Assembly: GCA_002256025.1 (NCBI GenBank)
Contig: NKIB01012799.1
Coordinates: 1 to 64,000, forward strand
Length of the DNA: 64,000 nt
Direction: 5' to 3'
Source of the DNA: Asterionella formosa
Taxonomy: Eukaryota
The position numbers were made by a program, and so were the translations under genes. Every line of letters starts with the position of its first letter. The first letter of the stretch is position 1. Of the stretch, positions 20,760 to 27,400 are shown piece after piece. Below the pieces are notes generated by a model. The model was given only the letters and a program-made list of their open reading frames with translations, had not been told where the DNA came from and made no database searches.

Positions 20760-23177
20760 TTAAAGAGTGAATTGAGGACATTTTCTATGTAAGTAAACGC
20801 CTGTCCTGCATCACGTTATCCATTTCAGCAAAATGACTGCAACTTGCAGGTACTGCTATGTTTTGCATCTCAACCATTGCATAATAACCCAGCTACCGGT
20901 TTCATTTCCATGTGGCTAGGTCTACCAGCAGTTCATTATACTAATATATAGTATACTGGAATATTATAAATGTTTCACGTACATAATTAAATTTGATTTT
21001 GTTCTGCCCTGGTATGCTTTATGTAGTTTTATGATTAAACATCTTTGTCTCGACCATGACGAACTCATTAGAACAAATATCTCAAAGACAATTGACAATG
21101 AAGCAAGTATTGCTACTTCATACATGTATCTAGCCTAACATAGATAATTTTAATCGTTCAATAATATTTTTTGCATTCATTGACAACAAAAATTGAAATT
21201 GCTGCTAGAATTTGTTTTTGTCGTCGTTTTCTCAGTTTCGAGGATACCAACAAAGTAGAGACATCATTGATTCCACAGTGGCTCATTGATAACTTTTTCT
21301 AGATAGTTATTCATATCTACTGTAATGAGAAAATTTGAACCAACAAAATCGCGAAAATGGTGCAATAGCTCAAGATGCAAGAAAATGCCTCAACTTTTTT
21401 GTACTGATTTTCATGTATGTACTAATTTGTTGTGGTTATTAATTCTATGGAATCTTGAGTAGTTCATTCTCAAGCTAAATATAGACATTCATGCAGACAT
21501 AACGCATTGCATCGCTTATTCTTTACTCGCTAGAAAATTCGCATTGTGTAAATAGTCATGAATTCGCGGAACTAACTCATTGTGCGTTTTCGGACATCTT
21601 CTGCAACAAAGACAATTTTTCGGAAGTCCTGTGAGTGCAACTCATGATTGGAAGTTACACAATTGGCAATCTGAAGGACAGGCATATGAGCATGGGTGGG
21701 TTACCAGTGCGGTTCAAGAAATGTCCTCACATTCATATTCTCTTTCCAATTGATGAGGAATGAGCGATGTGTTTCTTCAATCAAATTGTGTTCTCACTGA
21801 CAACAAAATGAGTGGCAGCAGTACCATGTGTAAATAGAGCTCCATGTAATTTCAGCTTGTCGGCCTGCTTCAACAGCCAAATCAAGTAAATGATACCTGA
21901 AAACTGAATATGGAATCTTGAACATGCGTCTGGATCTCTTGGTTTCTCTTCCATTTGGTCCCCCCCCCCCAATGTATGGCCTTAATGGAAGGATCAAGAA
22001 AAATTGTGCATGATTCTTTGGATTTCTTCTTGAGTTGAGTTCTGTAAAACTTGTGCTTTTCAATTGTGTTGTCCTCCCCAAAAGAGGAGGATGACAGGAG
22101 TATGCTGTCATCACCACCGTTTTCCTTGTCCCGCCCCCTCATCCTTGTCACTTTCATGAATGATGGAAATGGCTGCATTGTAGAGGTTTAGGCCGATTGA
22201 TTCTGCAAGCTATTCTGATGGCTGCTGCCTGCTGTGGTGAGTAGAGGAACAGATGATGGAATGGTGGGCAAGGACATGCCAAGTTTGAAGAGGAAGCAAC
22301 ACAGTGAATGGCAGAAACGAGCGTGAATGCAACGATGAGAACAGTGAATGCAAGAACAAAATTGCTAATAATATGTAGTGTAGCTACTAAATATGTGTAT
22401 ATTATCAGGCGGGAACACAGCATGTCTATTCATGGTAATCTAAAATTAAAATTGAACATTCTATTTGATTCTTGATGTGTGGCCACACCAGAAAATTGGC
22501 TGTTTAAGCTGTGTTTTTTTTGGCTATGATGACTGACACGATAAAATGTGATGCCCAGACACACAAAAACATTTTTTAGTTGAATTGGAACAAATCAATG
22601 ACGTAGTGGCACCACAATGTTTCAATCTAGTACTCCGGGCATATGTATGATTTCTTGATGCGAGTTTGTCTCTAATCCATCAAAGCACTAGTATCATCAA
22701 AACAAATATTTCTGTATCCAAATGTTACACTTTACCTTTGAAGGATTCTCCTGCCAATGTTGGACATATCTGCAATGACATTTCAAAGAAATGCATCATA
22801 GAAATGATGCTGAAAATGACAGTGAGGATGTCAATAGAAAGAACAATGTGCCATACAGCCATTTCATGATGTTTATCATTGGCTATATAAGATAAAAAAA
22901 TATGCTATCACAGATTTTCTAATTTACATAGGAGTTTCCCATTGCCCAATTCTCAAATCATTACATATGCAAATGTTGCCTGGAATACAACTTCATCAAA
23001 AGTATGGAATTCGTGACAAGCATTTTCAGTGATAACTCATGCAGTTACAGGGAAGGACTGCAGAAAAACCAAGAATGCTATATTTTTTATAGAGTTACTT
23101 TTTTGCAATACCACCAAATTTCCATATAGGAAAATGATATTTCGTCTCCCATTAGGAGCTATTTCGATATTTAATTC

Positions 23178-23200
23178 CCCTAACCCTAACCCTAACCCTA
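23178..23200 (+). repeat. Short interstitial (CCCTAA)n tract
   Basis: CCCTAACCCTAACCCTAACCCTA, about 3.8 units. Confidence 0.8.
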
Positions 23201-23570
23201 GACTCTTCCAAGGTACCACTGAATCATGGTCATACATACGGGGGCATCTGCAGAAAAAGGGAACTTCCACCTGGCAGACTTGTGATGGACGATGACATGA
23301 TAATGAGCAATCATACCTTGAACATAATATGGACACACGATACCATACATAAACGATCTCTTATTAGTATATATTTTATACAGCACATATTGCTTACCGG
23401 TATACATGTATCAATTTACATTACTATAGGTACCTGGTACCAAAAGTTAGTCTAAATAACAAGGATAATCGAGGTGCGTCTAATTGTCTTTATTTTGTCC
23501 ACAGTCGGCCGTCCAGCAAAACGTCAATTGCTTCCGTCGCTTGTTATACTCCTCAGCTGAACGACCTACC

Positions 23571-24321
23571 ATGCTGGAGTTTCGTGCGGCGGCTCTGCCG
23601 CTCCTCCTGCTGATATTTGTAGTGTTATATGCTGATGCATCAAGCAATCAAAACAGATTAACCATACCTTCATGCGTATCGCCGCAAACATCAAAAATAG
23701 TGAGGTTACCATTTGTACTGACAAGGGGAGGCTCCATCAGCGATTCGGATGATGACGAAGTTGACCTAGATGAGGAAGGAGAAGAAGAAGACGACGACGA
23801 CGAAGAAGAAATCGAAGATGAAGTAGCTGAGCTAGATCCAGTGTTGGTAAAGGCTGCCAAAAAGGCTTCTCACAAGTCCAAGGAAAAACTGACTGCAGCT
23901 GTCAAGGCGAAGGTATCGGCGAAGCTGGCGGCGCCTGCACTAAAAACGAAGAAATCAGGCGGCCTCTTCAAAAGTATTCCATATATTATTCGGGCTTCCC
24001 TTAATCCGTTCACTTTGATTGCCATGACAAAGGCGTATTTTGAGTCTCTGTTCAACCTCAATTACCTCCAAGAGGTGCGATTTTGTTGTGTTAAAATCTT
24101 TCGTTTCGCTCCTTCTGTCAATAAAATTACTGTTAATTCGAAAATTGTCCTCTCAACTGTGTTTTTTTTAATTACAGGATAAGTCACAAGGATTGCGATC
24201 AGCACTGGAAGAAAAGGCAAAGCATGCTGGCTCAGGCGGATTGCGCAAGGGGAAGCGACAAATGAAACCTGGGCAAGCAAAAACTCTAAATGACTTGCCT
24301 CAACTCAGCACCTGAGGTTAA
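23571..24321 (+). CDS. Putative selenoprotein, SelK/SelS-like (215 aa, penultimate Sec); exons 23571-24074 and 24178-24321
   Basis: Signal peptide, D/E tract, hydrophobic segment ending YFESLF and a G/K/R-rich tail. In-frame TGA at 24313-24315 is followed by GGT TAA, with a SECIS about 70 nt downstream. Confidence 0.75.
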
Positions 24322-24358
24322 AGGAGGACAGACTGGATTGACAGTGGGGAGGACTCAT

Positions 24359-24452
24359 CGCATTCATTTTGTTCGAATCATATCGAACTTGAATGACGAG
24401 GCCGCACTCAACCATCTATATATGGAGGTGTGGCTTCTGAGAAGAGAATGCG
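24359..24452 (+). promoter_or_regulatory. Eukaryotic SECIS element (type II) in the 3' UTR
   Basis: ATGAC (24393-97) and TGAG (24438-41) form the quartet. 11-bp helix GAGGCCGCACT:GGTGTGGCTTC, apical AA (24410-11), mini-helix CCAT/ATGG and lower stem CGCATTC:GAATGCG. Confidence 0.8.
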
Positions 24453-27400
24453 TTCCAACTCGTGCACCTGCTGCCAATAGTTCCTGGACTCCAAAACCTT
24501 ATCCTACGTGCCATTATAGACATAAGATAGCTCCTTATTAGTTTTCATGTACACGTATTTTGATACCCACGCAGTTACTTCGAAACTCTCCTTCTCGATG
24601 ATTTTCTCAGCAACGTTTCTAGGCCATGTATTTTGATCTTATCCAGGTTATCACCAAGTTCTACTATTTCGACTTTTAAATTGAAAAACATACTCATTAA
24701 ATGACATTAAATGACATTAAATGAGATGAAAAAAGCTCTATCTTTCTCTGCGCTGGTATAATTCATTGTCATTGCAACAATATGGCCTTCACTTCTCACT
24801 CGAATCTCATCCACTTCATGTTCATGTTATGTTTGAATCGCATTTCCCATTTGGTTATATGTTAAATTATATTTCTAGGGTTACAGTCATTGTGCTCCAT
24901 GGCCTATAAAAGGTGGGGAGGTGAAATCTTTGAGTGGTGGTCATTTCCTTGTATGGAAGTAGAGGTAAAAAAAATTTGTGGTAGCGTTGTTCCTAGTTAT
25001 ATTCTCTATGACTGCACTTGTTCTCATGTCGGCCTGAGAATTGGATTGTGATTGTTGAAAGTTTAAATATTTCTTTCTTGGTCCCACTTCTGGTTTTATT
25101 TGGAGTATATATAACATATGATGAATGTGGGGCTCCCCTACCTCGCTCATTATTGTCATTGTTGTCATTATATTTGTCATCATAGAATATTTCTGTGAGC
25201 AGCACCTCCATCTCTGGCTCAATTTCTTCATCAGGGACTCTTTTATTTTTCTTTCCTCGTTATCCTTTTCGATGTCTATCACATAACCATCCTAGTTTTC
25301 TTCTTCGCCTTGATCTGTGGTATTGCTTTTTTTCATTATTTTCTAGTTGCATTGATGTCATTTCCATGAATTCTCCCATTTGCAGTGTTTGTATCAAACG
25401 CCAAATTGACATACATGCAATTGTCATTGTTCACCGCTCCTGCATTAAGCTTTGTCTGCTTTTCCACCGCCTCCGCTTCTTTCTGCATTCTCCTTCTATC
25501 AGATTTCATTACTATCTTATTGATCTGTCCCACATTACTGATTGCTTCTTTTGCGGCTTTGTCGGCCGCTTGCACAACACCTTTTGCCATGGTGAATCAG
25601 CAGTTTTTAGGATTATTTACTAGTGGGACCTGGAGGTCTCCATAGCTAGAATGCCTTTAAAATTGTGTGATCAGTATTGCAGTATTGTTGTACTGTAGCA
25701 GTCTTTTGTGAACTCGCCTTTAAATTACTTGGCAAAAAATTTTACTCTTATGAATTATAAAATAATAGACCCTTTTGGTTTAATTCACAAAGTTATTCTC
25801 GATGTCTGAAGACTTGCATTTCTTGTTCGATTTGAAAAACTCGTGCACCAACATAGTTTCGTTTCTTCCTCCCTTGTGTTTTCTACGGCATTCATTAAAT
25901 CGACTGCCTCCACTTTAGACACAACCAGCTCACTCTTCGTTGTCTTATTTACCTCTTCGTCGTTCATATGTTGTTTCTATAACGACGTGGGACTCTAGCG
26001 ACGGAGACCGAGCTGCGATCTTCCATGATTGGCACATAATCACTAGGCGTTCACAAACCACCATCTGGCATATCCAAGGCCTGGGGATATACTCGAATTA
26101 GAGAAAGAAATATCCCAGTTGGATATTTGTGACAGGCAAGCCAATGAAATGGAAGTGAACCGCCTGCTCCAATTGTCTTGGCTGCATCAATGTTTGCTTG
26201 TGATACCGCAACAAATACTCATGCGGAGGGAAGAGAGCTTCGGGTGCAGCATCCGACATTTTCAGGCTTAAATAAAATTATGTTATCAGTTGACTGGGAT
26301 TTGGATTCGGTCGCGATGGTAGCTGACCCAATTGGCGCGTTTCTTTGGAGTTTTATTTTCGGATCCAAATTGGAAACGGGCATGCATTACACAGTCAAAC
26401 GATGGCACTTTCTGTGATGTTTCGTCCAAACCCCATCAAGTCTAAATATTTATTGTTAAAGCATACTATTCCTTCCTTTTCATCAAATCAATTCGTAAGT
26501 AAGTTTGCTTCTGAGAAAGCCTCGTCCATCGTCACCGCGTTCACCTCAATGTACGTTATCGGAACTCGCTCTCGCTGACAGGCACTGTCAGGTGGCCGCA
26601 CATTGCATTCAGCACCTATGGGTTTCCACAAGAAGCAGTAATAGCAAATTGACCTGAGCACGAAGGAGATTGTTGGCGTTGTTCGTCCATCATTGCATCT
26701 TTTGACCATTTTATCATTTTGTATTGGTCACAATTGCATTCGAGTGATTCGGGGCGATTCAGGAAATGTTTTGTGAATACTGACTGTATGTACCAGTACT
26801 TACGGTAGTAAAATGGAGCAACGAGTGGTTGGCCGTTATCAAAGTTTCCGTTGCAAGGTCGTTTCAATTCCCTGCCTGAACCCTACATTAGTGACAAAAT
26901 GAATGACAACGTAATTAACAAAACTACCGGAGGTAAAATGATTTCATTCGCTCAGTAGCATATTCGATATGTAAATACGTAAATGGATATTGATACATAA
27001 ACCTGAACAGTATTATTGGGATTTTTGAATATATTTACCGGTAAATGTATCTGAACCGTTATCTGATGGAGAATACCGGTACTGGCCGGGATAAGTAACA
27101 GTAAATATATTTCATAATTGCATACTGTAGTGCCGGTACGTACACACCAAACTGCCAAAATGTATTATGAACCGGTACATATAATATATATGTAATATGC
27201 ATTCCGACAAAAATATGGACCATGCAAATGTGCAGTCTGTTTTGGTGTACCGATATATATTTTAATAGAAACAAGACTTGTTGTCGGATTATTTGATCAG
27301 ACTTGTGTTCCCAAACAAGATTGGAACGAGCAATCGACAGAAGAGACAAGTGATTGATCATTGTTCCATGAGCAATCGGCTCAAGCAAGAAGAAGCCTGC

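Follow-up and report, generated by a model that had tools for sequence, protein, structure and literature searches.

A conserved diatom gene ending in TGA-GGT-TAA, with a SECIS element in its 3′UTR, as a probable selenoprotein gene of SelK/SelS-like architecture

Does the TGA that closes an open reading frame of the diatom Asterionella formosa, one glycine codon ahead of a TAA, terminate translation, or does it encode selenocysteine in a protein that gene finders cut short? The question was raised by an earlier note on the 64,000 nucleotides analysed here (contig NKIB01012799.1, the 64-kb window in what follows), which had proposed a spliced gene, a UGA-Gly-stop ending and a type II SECIS-shaped hairpin downstream. 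All of these sequence elements were found in place, and our verdict is that the gene is a genuine selenoprotein gene. In the reading that we prefer, with a probability of roughly 0.85, this is an expressed diatom nuclear gene for a 215-residue selenoprotein, in which the SECIS recodes UGA and the product offers an exposed selenol in the membrane-associated manner of SelK and SelS.

Much of the primary production of the oceans is carried out by diatoms. A selenium requirement has been reported for 33 photosynthetic microorganisms from six phyla (PMC6254913), and diatoms are credited with 20 to 44 selenoprotein genes (PMC7539508). A 2007 inventory of Thalassiosira pseudonana, which included the sequence of its Sec tRNA, recorded 16 selenoproteins and lists neither SelK nor SelS (PMC2375036). 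Among the papers listed by literature searches, none names a diatom family of the kind reported here.

This diatom gene is real and expressed; its two exons and its other parts are as follows.

23507..23570, + strand: 5′UTR (RNA contigs start at 23507-23510)
23571..24074, + strand: exon 1 coding, from the start ATG at 23571; 168 codons
24075..24177, + strand: intron, GT..AG, 103 nt, phase 0 (RNA contigs X1, X4 and X6)
24178..24315, + strand: exon 2 coding, ending ...DLPQLST, through Thr213
24316..24318, + strand: in-frame TGA, taken to encode selenocysteine (residue 214)
24319..24324, + strand: GGT (Gly215) and the true stop TAA (24322-24324)
24325..24547, + strand: 3′UTR to the poly(A) site (end of the X4 contig)

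With the TGA read through, the predicted protein has 215 residues, and the 5′UTR holds no ATG upstream of 23571. RNA contigs from runs X1, X4 and X6, drawn from two studies (P1 and P2), lack the intron and skip exactly 103 nt with GT..AG ends; the joint in these contigs is placed at 24072>24176 with a cut of +2, so that 24075-24177 is removed and the splice acceptor is the one originally proposed. The intron occupies the same position in genomic relatives. At the 3′ side, the X4 contig matches the window up to 24547 and then continues as A14, which puts polyadenylation downstream of the SECIS and not upstream of 24393. RNA contigs span 24176-24547, including 24380-24487, and the hairpin is therefore located within the 3′UTR of the mature mRNA. 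The contig from run X7, which is unspliced and 90-95% alike, probably represents DNA or pre-mRNA from a related strain and is uninformative on splicing.

The end of the reading frame was then compared across relatives. TGA-GGN-TAA/TAG was present in 77/77 related metagenome loci reaching the C-terminus as well as in the window (78/78), and neither TAA, TAG nor TGY was found at the first-stop position in any of the 77 related loci. The second stop was TAA in 76 and TAG in 2 of the 78 sequences, and the codon between the stops was GGT in 63, GGC in 7, GGA in 5 and GGG in 3. This retention of Gly through all four synonymous codons is the signature of translation. Among 124 database relatives carrying the DLPxLxx motif, 117 end immediately before the TGA, 4 read ‘WG’ at the C-terminus, their callers having taken TGA as W, and 2, known as protein sequences only, have Cys at the Sec position (P0079, ..NTCGG; P0107, ..NTCSG). 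Public protein sets have thus ended the protein at the UGA, translated UGA as Trp or extended the frame into the intron. Gene finders routinely shorten members of this diatom family by two residues, as had been foreseen from the window.

The hairpin downstream of the TGA has the shape of a type II SECIS, as judged from its fold and its conservation.

24359..24452, + strand: SECIS element, type II shape
24359-24365 with 24446-24452, + strand: helix I (lower stem CGCATTC/GAATGCG)
24371-24388, + strand: extra 5′ hairpin, between helix I and the core, in the 5′ strand
24393-24396 (AUGA) opposite 24438-24441 (UGAG), + strand: core
24398-24408 with 24427-24437, + strand: helix II, 11 bp
24410-24411, + strand: unpaired AA
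24412-24415 with 24422-24425, + strand: apical mini-stem CCAT/ATGG

All helices of the hairpin described in the earlier note were recovered in an unconstrained minimum-energy fold (-36.6 kcal/mol, z = -3.24), and 0/200 shuffles were as stable. In the window, the element lies 77 nt behind the in-frame UGA. The SECIS core quartet has been defined as UGAN / KGAW with tandem G.A/A.G pairs (PMC3753652); the element of the window, with AUGAC on its 5′ strand and UGAG on its 3′ strand, fits except for the last letter, which is G against the consensus W (A or U). RNA contigs also carry a strain variant, 24404 G>A, that turns a G.U into an A-U pair within the SECIS.

Conservation of this structure across relatives was assessed by alignment and by covariance. 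ATGA, AA and a 3′ A were invariant in 39/39 aligned elements, and the 15-pair structure formed by the two helices had 86.2% of its cells paired, compared with 75.6% in shuffles and 37-48% when partners were slid. Double changes occurred at 11 of the 15 pairs, with a covariation score reached by 0/500 shuffles, and the outcome was unchanged on 62 distinct rows. Helix II alone had changes on both sides at 9/11 pairs, and the CCAU/AUGG mini-stem was paired at 94% across the alignment. Support for the outer part was modest: whole-element folds contained the extra 5′ hairpin in 51/59 cases, a flank-to-flank helix in 41/59 and both in 36/59, with a mean of 7.4 and 8.0 pairs, respectively, against 5.0 and 6.0 in shuffled flanks. 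The duplex energy of the helix I flanks did not stand out from shuffles (median z +0.54, z<=-2 in 1/62), but with the 3′ anchor off by one in about half of the rows this comparison is uninformative.

A strict SECIS pattern scanner matched 13/78 loci, compared with 1/78 reverse complements and 8/390 shuffles, and was replaced by a covariance model (R1). This model returned 72 matches at E<=1 in 209,530 bases, comprising 71 related loci and the window, all on the + strand and 73-270 nt downstream of the TGA. Its single match in the 64-kb window was at 24379-24457 (53.7 bits). The SECIS models of Rfam release 15 gave no match at E<=10 in 23000-25200 or in 20 related loci, where the scans produced only chance matches to unrelated families; we attribute this miss to a library that is insensitive to elements of this kind and do not count it as evidence against a SECIS.

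Taken together, these observations leave scarcely tenable the explanation that the TGA is an ordinary stop, with the protein ending at Thr213, GGN-TAA as a back-up stop context and the hairpin as some other 3′UTR element such as a kink-turn protein-binding site, since the silence of Rfam and the 117 gene calls that stop at the TGA are set against an invariant TGA-Gly-stop arrangement, Cys at that site in two relatives, and a hairpin with all SECIS marks (AUGA, AA, GA) and covarying helices. It is almost certain that the in-frame TGA specifies a penultimate selenocysteine. The diatom set thereby gains an expressed, conserved selenoprotein that standard annotation misses, and ...DLPxLxx-TGA-GGN-stop, combined with the family-specific SECIS model, offers an annotation marker for diatom genomes and metatranscriptomes.

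By analogy with the established eukaryotic pathway, an mRNA spliced once, polyadenylated near 24547 and bearing the type II SECIS in its 3′UTR would have its UGA recoded through SBP2, eEFSec and Sec-tRNA; the window itself holds 0 tRNA genes in 64 kb. The C-terminus would then read ...Ser-Thr-Sec-Gly in place of a stop after Thr213. Because this UGA is located in the final exon, failed recoding should yield a protein two residues shorter and not lead to decay of the mRNA.

To describe the product, the two exons of the window protein were analysed separately, and spliced orthologues served as stand-ins for the full-length protein. Exon 1 encodes a signal-peptide-like hydrophobic start, an S/T/R-rich linker ending in LTRGG, a D/E tract, an A/K-rich helix and the moderately hydrophobic IPYIIRASLNPFTLIAMTKAYFESLF, while exon 2 contributes a conserved helix (LRSALEEKAK), a basic tail rich in G and the MKPGQAKTLxDLPQLxx motif. 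The family has 279 representatives at E<=1e-3, and 54 aligned proteins share one order of domains. Its members follow a fixed plan: a hydrophobic signal, an acid-poor S/T/R linker leading to RGG, an acidic tract, a long A/K helix, a moderately hydrophobic helix with a kink, LRSALEEKAK and a basic, G-containing, disordered Sec tail. The signal peptide, LTRGG motif, D/E tract and A/K-rich helix first remarked on in the single sequence are therefore family traits. Every named source of a relative is a diatom; the family appears to be diatom-wide and was seen here only in diatoms, so that the suggestion of a stramenopile subfamily is broader than the range observed.

The Sec tail (31 members, median 43 residues) contains 12.4% G, 6.2% P, 24.7% K+R and 6.2% D+E; its glycine content is moderate. 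Cys was found in the tail, apart from the Sec site, in 0/31 members, and Sec is preceded by Thr, Ala or Ser. Hydrophobicity is strong in the N-terminal stretch, where the 10-residue Kyte-Doolittle mean reaches 3.34 in the window protein (median over 127 relatives, 2.83), and this stretch looks cleavable. The internal segment has a 19-residue mean of about 1.0-1.25 in relatives and below 1.0 in the window protein. An AlphaFold2 model of protein P0007, of low confidence (pLDDT 65.1, pTM 0.27) and used for helix boundaries only, splits the presumed membrane segment into helices 142-147 and 150-165 (16 residues) with a proline kink between them. Given this weak hydrophobicity and a 16-residue kinked helix in a low-pTM model, the segment may not span the membrane.

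If the protein works in the mode of the SelK/SelS group, it would be a membrane-associated protein on the secretory or complex-plastid route and would present one exposed and highly reactive selenol on a flexible basic tail. Since the tail has no partner Cys, Sec would be expected to act intermolecularly, through a selenenylsulfide or a diselenide. It would react with partner proteins or with small oxidants, the mode that has been put forward for SelK, and not through an internal Cys-Sec pair as in SelS and thioredoxin reductase.

Where the protein goes is a separate matter. Diatom plastid presequences are described as having Phe at +1, hydroxylated residues, few negative charges and a net positive charge, with 14-95 residues removed (PMC4329603). 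Across 127 full-length relatives, a median of 43 residues separates the hydrophobic start from the acidic tract, and this stretch contains 4.1% D/E, 10.5% K/R and 19.8% S/T; [A/S/G/C]-F follows just after the hydrophobic core in 50/127 (e.g., ADAF, VDAF and SHAF), a crude pattern counted with no control set; and an RGG-like motif stands directly ahead of the acidic tract in 109/127. The N-terminus of many relatives thus resembles, in its sequence features, a plastid-targeting presequence. On these grounds, the protein could be carried by a bipartite presequence to the periplastidal compartment, the envelope or the stroma of the complex plastid, with a mature start near RGG, and not reside in the host ER. 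We regard this as unlikely, though worth keeping in view, given that the window protein and its nearest relatives have no F/W/Y/L where cleavage is likely (..YADA|SS), so that under the ASAFind rule the window protein would count as non-plastid.

The periplastidal membrane has a protein-import machinery derived from ERAD, known as SELMA. A bolder proposal would make this family a diatom-wide SelK/SelS-type selenoprotein re-addressed to the complex plastid, where its exposed C-terminal selenol would play for SELMA the part that SelS and SelK play for Derlin/p97 in the ER of animals; we consider this a long shot. Were plastid targeting true, the case would be considerably more interesting, and the SELMA reading, if true, would link the selenium demand of diatoms directly to plastid protein import.

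A selenoprotein of SelK/SelS type in architecture remains the reading that we prefer, and its most serious competitor accepts the selenocysteine and disputes the kinship. The protein could belong to an independent, diatom-born family that acquired a penultimate Sec by convergence, as in thioredoxin reductase, and functions outside ER-associated protein handling. No Pfam family reached its cut-off across the scans, Selenoprotein_S (PF06936) was not matched in any of them, and a PDB profile search found nothing meaningful, and hence no solved relative (best E-value 0.15). The two exon translations of the window gave acidic low-complexity matches only and none to SelK_SelG. Added to this are an N-terminal part of 130 residues that has no SelK counterpart and the weakness of the hydrophobic segment.

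Against an independent origin, three weak signals name SelK_SelG. The best Pfam match to that family is from P0008, at 18.8 bits (E=0.0026) under a gathering cut-off of 23.3 bits, and its alignment covers the hydrophobic segment and the G-rich tail (profile positions 28-72 of 86). The same family was matched below threshold in 3/31 C-terminal modules (best E 0.011), fewer than the 5/31 that matched DUF2828. The other two signals are the language-model neighbours of two divergent members, both SelK_SelG clusters, although a third of shuffled proteins also reach Atlas scores of this size (0.81 and 0.76). Moreover, what defines the SelK/SelS-like group is architecture and not significant similarity of sequence; in SELENOK and SELENOS homologues, Sec occupies the second or third position from the C-terminus (PMC10650576). 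Two of the three features of that group are present here, namely a tail rich in G, P and positive charge and a Sec second from the C-terminus. We give an independent origin somewhat less than even odds. The kinship with SelK and SelS is architectural only: the resemblance claimed by the earlier note stands as architecture and does not extend to Pfam membership, given the sub-threshold SelK_SelG score and the lack of any Selenoprotein_S match. The family provides a tractable case for studying what a lone Sec does at the C-terminal end of a disordered tail, a question that SelK and SelS also pose.

Set beside known systems, the RNA element shares with the eukaryotic type II SECIS its AUGA/GA core, 11-bp helix II, unpaired AA, apical mini-stem and 3′UTR location, and differs in escaping the Rfam models, in the G that ends the core of the window and in the extra small hairpin on the 5′ side, between helix I and the core, in the window and many relatives. 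At the protein level, the C-terminal centre of thioredoxin reductase is alike in placing Sec-Gly-stop at the extreme C-terminus on a flexible tail. That enzyme has a Gly-Cys-Sec-Gly redox centre, whereas both the adjacent Cys and the flavoprotein domain are absent from the diatom family.

SELENOS (VIMP) comes nearer in several respects, with its penultimate Sec, a long helix before a disordered basic tail, and the arrangement of a membrane protein with such a tail. The VCP-interacting motif has the form RX5AAX2R, and none was seen by eye in LRSALEEKAK. Human SelS, in which Sec is residue 188 of 189, pairs Sec188 with Cys174 (PMC3628699), whereas the diatom tails have no Cys to take the place of that partner.

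With SELENOK (PF10961, SelK_SelG), the family shares a hydrophobic segment followed by a disordered, basic and Gly-containing tail, a single Sec and a tail free of partner Cys. SelK has about 90 residues, with Sec at the third position from its C-terminus. In the diatom family, Sec is penultimate, some 130 residues (signal, RGG, acidic tract and A/K helix) are added at the N-terminus, the hydrophobic segment is weaker and the Pfam score stays under the gathering cut-off. SELENOK is nonetheless the only named family that recurs in the weak results of both sequence and feature searches.

The gene is expressed as a spliced, polyadenylated mRNA that carries an in-frame UGA and, in its 3′ UTR, a conserved and covarying SECIS element. 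Its features, whose description in the earlier note (intron, TGA-GGT-TAA and hairpin parts) matches the region exactly, are as follows.

Features of the gene and its 3′ UTR
23571 (+), start ATG, by sequence reading
23571-24074 (+), exon 1 coding, 168 codons
23715-23729 (+), LTRGG motif, directly before the acidic tract
23767-23817 (+), GAA/GAC-rich repeat coding for the D/E tract, from RNA contigs
24075-24177 (+), GT..AG intron, 103 nt, from RNA contigs
from 24178 (+), exon 2 coding, its end reading ...RKGKRQMKPGQAKTLNDLPQLST
24316-24318 (+), TGA, followed by GGT and then TAA, by sequence reading
24371-24388 (+), extra small 5′ hairpin, from minimum-energy folds

Contigs of three RNA libraries from two studies (X1, X4, and X6), which match the window at ≥99% identity, skip exactly the 103 nt bounded by GT..AG, and the intron and acceptor are those the earlier note had proposed. 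Transcript 5′ ends fall at 23507-23510 in the RNA contigs, and no upstream ATG was read in the leader from there to 23571. The contig of X4, a poly(A)-selected run, has 24547 as its last base, followed by fourteen A, placing polyadenylation downstream of the hairpin. Because the RNA contigs fix the intron, the acceptor, and the poly(A) end, the hairpin at 24359-24452 lies within the 3′ UTR of the mature mRNA. A 1615-nt contig from another RNA library, X7 (23300-24812), is merely 90-95% alike, retains the intron, and probably comes from the DNA or pre-mRNA of a related strain or species; it was left out of the splicing evidence. The GAA/GAC-rich stretch acts as a repeat at which X1 and X6 contigs break, and was skipped in contig mapping.

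Judged by sequence conservation, the UGA-Gly pair is treated as coding. A word-indexed search with exon 1 residues 88-168 gave 97 candidates, from which 19 proteins were accepted as relatives. Five of these, all transcript-derived (P0007, P0008, P0010, P0011, and P0013), are spliced as in the window and end with the residue that precedes its TGA; in the remaining 14, which we take to be gene calls on genomic contigs, the open frame continues into the intron. Scanning JGI metagenome records with an alignment of the relatives yielded 78 loci, including cross-sample duplicates (62 of the 72 SECIS rows are distinct), and the C-terminus was reached in 77 of them, L058 being excluded since it ends at a contig edge. 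The TGA-GGN-stop arrangement, whose retention in orthologues the earlier note had proposed to check, is kept in all 77 and in the window, with no TAA, TAG, or Cys codon at the first-stop position. With the window counted (n = 78), the Gly codon is GGT in 63, GGC in 7, GGA in 5, and GGG in 3, and the second stop is TAA in 76 and TAG in 2. An invariant TGA, together with synonymous-only drift of the Gly codon and a second stop, forms the pattern of a translated UGA.

The C-terminal module (alignment A4, 31 sequences), used as a HMMER query, returned 279 cluster representatives at E ≤ 1e-3; of 166 stored proteins inspected, 124 contain the motif DLPxLxx. As had been predicted, gene finders miss the Sec: 117 of the 124 terminate right at this motif. 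Four public records (P0034, P0036, P0120, and P0132) end in WG, which we take to be a gene caller translating the Sec codon TGA as Trp, two protein records carry Cys in place of the Sec (P0079, ...NTCGG; P0107, ...NTCSG; Cys codons inferred), and one continues differently past the motif.

The hairpin opens with ATGAC 68 bases 3′ of the TAA and comprises the helix GAGGCCGCACT/GGTGTGGCTTC, an unpaired AA, a CCAT/ATGG mini-stem, TGAG, and the outer stem CGCATTC/GAATGCG. Folding 24355-24465 without constraints recovers the hairpin's helices at -36.6 kcal/mol (z = -3.24, with 0/200 shuffles as stable). In an alignment of 39 elements, ATGA, AA, and one 3′ A are invariant, and RNAalifold, unaided, called 9 pairs, with compensatory changes at 8. 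A 15-pair structure written from the window left 86.2% of cells paired in this alignment, against 75.6% with shuffled partners and 37-48% with the 3′ partner slid by 1-3 columns; double-sided changes occur at 11 of the 15 pairs, and the covariation score was reached by 0/500 shuffles. A covariance model built from the alignment and run over both strands of 209,530 bases confirmed the conservation that the earlier note had wished to see checked, with 72 matches at E ≤ 1, all on the coding strand and 73-270 nt 3′ of the TGA, 33 of them in loci outside the seed. The 64-kb window contains exactly one, its own element (24379-24457, 53.7 bits). The model-fitted alignment was 86.7% paired, in agreement with 86.2%, such counts being biased towards the model. 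No match was found in seven loci (L005, L013, L042, L043, L058, L071, and L077), of which L013 and L077 have <190 nt of 3′ sequence and L058 is cut ahead of the C-terminus.

The window core fits the SECIS core UGAN/KGAW, as defined in PMC3753652, bar its final 3′ letter, which is G. A scan of the window region and 20 related loci with Rfam release 15 gave no match to any SECIS family at E ≤ 10, which we read as a limit of the library because the best-conserved members were missed too. Minimum-energy folds give 51 of 59 elements a small 5′-strand hairpin that separates helix I from the AUGA core, its excess over shuffled flanks being modest; this extra hairpin lends the SECIS a three-way shape, seen in loci such as L041, L051, L015, and L056. 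In X6 RNA contigs, G>A at 24404 turns a helix II G.U into A-U, a strain difference that preserves structure. Three loci (L001, L062, and L066), whose proteins resemble Thalassiosira-named relatives, have a type I-like SECIS without the apical mini-stem and with AA in the apical loop; their scores against the covariance model are low (22-28 bits).

Named sources of the family are Grammatophora, Thalassiosira, Tryblionella, Stephanopyxis, Attheya, Coscinodiscus, and Chaetoceros, all of them diatoms, from centric as well as pennate lines. One domain plan is kept in 54 aligned full-length proteins, including the N-terminal features picked out in the earlier note. The proteins begin with a hydrophobic segment and a linker whose terminal RGG is almost invariant; a tract of D/E(Y) and a stretch rich in K, A, S, and T come next, then the motifs IPYIxRAxLNPxTxxAMTxAYFxSLxNxxY and SQxLRSALEEKAK, a Gly-containing basic stretch, and finally MKPGQAKTLSDLPQLxx-Sec-Gly. 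A low-confidence AlphaFold2 model of P0007 (pLDDT 65.1, pTM 0.27) places helices at 5-21, 96-126, 142-147, 150-165, and 174-189, with the remainder disordered. Genomic relatives have this intron position in common, their last exon beginning at the same ..SQxLRSAL. The last open stretch likewise starts at or just before ..SQxLRSAL in L043, L050, L054, L060-L064, L066, L067, L071-L074, L077, and L078, loci taken to be genomic; since window exon 2 does so too, the intron position looks old within the family.

Across 127 full-length relatives, a median of 43 residues (4.1% D/E, 10.5% K/R, 19.8% S/T) separates the hydrophobic core from the acidic tract, [A/S/G/C]-F follows the core directly in 50 (ADAF, VDAF, SHAF, and similar), and an RGG-like motif (loose pattern, alignment A5) immediately precedes the tract in 109. 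These features correspond to marks of diatom bipartite plastid presequences described in PMC4329603. The RGG, for which no known motif was identified, could mark a presequence processing site. Where cleavage is likely (..YADA↓SS), neither the window's protein nor its nearest relatives have an aromatic residue; the protein may be destined for the ER, the secretory route, the periplastidal compartment, or the plastid. A plastid destination, if true, would raise the interest of the family.

No Pfam family covers the protein, and source records label the relatives hypothetical or uncharacterised. In the literature searched we found no paper naming such a diatom family. A 2020 algal selenoproteome survey (PMC7539508) predicted selenoproteins by SECIS; its classes include SELENOK, SELENOS, and 'Hypo', and its database may already list the family under one of them.

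By the established pathway, Sec would be inserted at codon 214 via SBP2/eEFSec, with termination at the UGA giving the fallback product. For Sec machinery in diatoms we rely on published work: the Sec tRNA of T. pseudonana has been sequenced, and the 16 selenoproteins reported from that species include neither SelK nor SelS (PMC2375036), and 20-44 selenoprotein genes are given per diatom genome (PMC7539508). The architecture suggests a membrane-associated protein whose basic, flexible tail would display a single selenol for intermolecular Se-S or Se-Se chemistry.

In our reading, the gene couples a C-terminal Sec module of SelK/SelS type to a conserved N-terminal part of 130 residues. The SelK/SelS-like group, as PMC10650576 presents it, is defined by architecture, its two founders having no significant sequence similarity. 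Members have a single transmembrane domain and a tail with a high content of Gly, Pro, and positive charge, and their Sec is the penultimate residue or the one before it. The earlier note's assignment to this group holds for the Sec position and, moderately, for the tail (12.4% G, 6.2% P, 24.7% K+R). For the internal segment, a possible transmembrane domain, the Kyte-Doolittle mean over 19 residues is at most ~1.0-1.25 (<1.0 in the window's protein). By sequence, Selenoprotein_S matched in no Pfam scan of family sequences, and SelK_SelG stayed below its cut-off of 23.3 bits, the best match being P0008 (18.8 bits, E = 0.0026, its alignment spanning both the hydrophobic segment and the G-rich stretch), with L042 at E = 0.074. 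Sub-threshold SelK_SelG matches occur in 3/31 C-terminal modules, against 5/31 for the unrelated DUF2828, and in the language-model comparison two divergent members have SelK_SelG clusters as their neighbours (0.81 and 0.76, scores that shuffled proteins often attain). Because three weak signals name the same family, a distant link to SelK is plausible at roughly even odds, short of proof. In SelS, Sec188 pairs with Cys174 (PMC3628699), whereas the tail of the diatom family has no Cys to partner its Sec.
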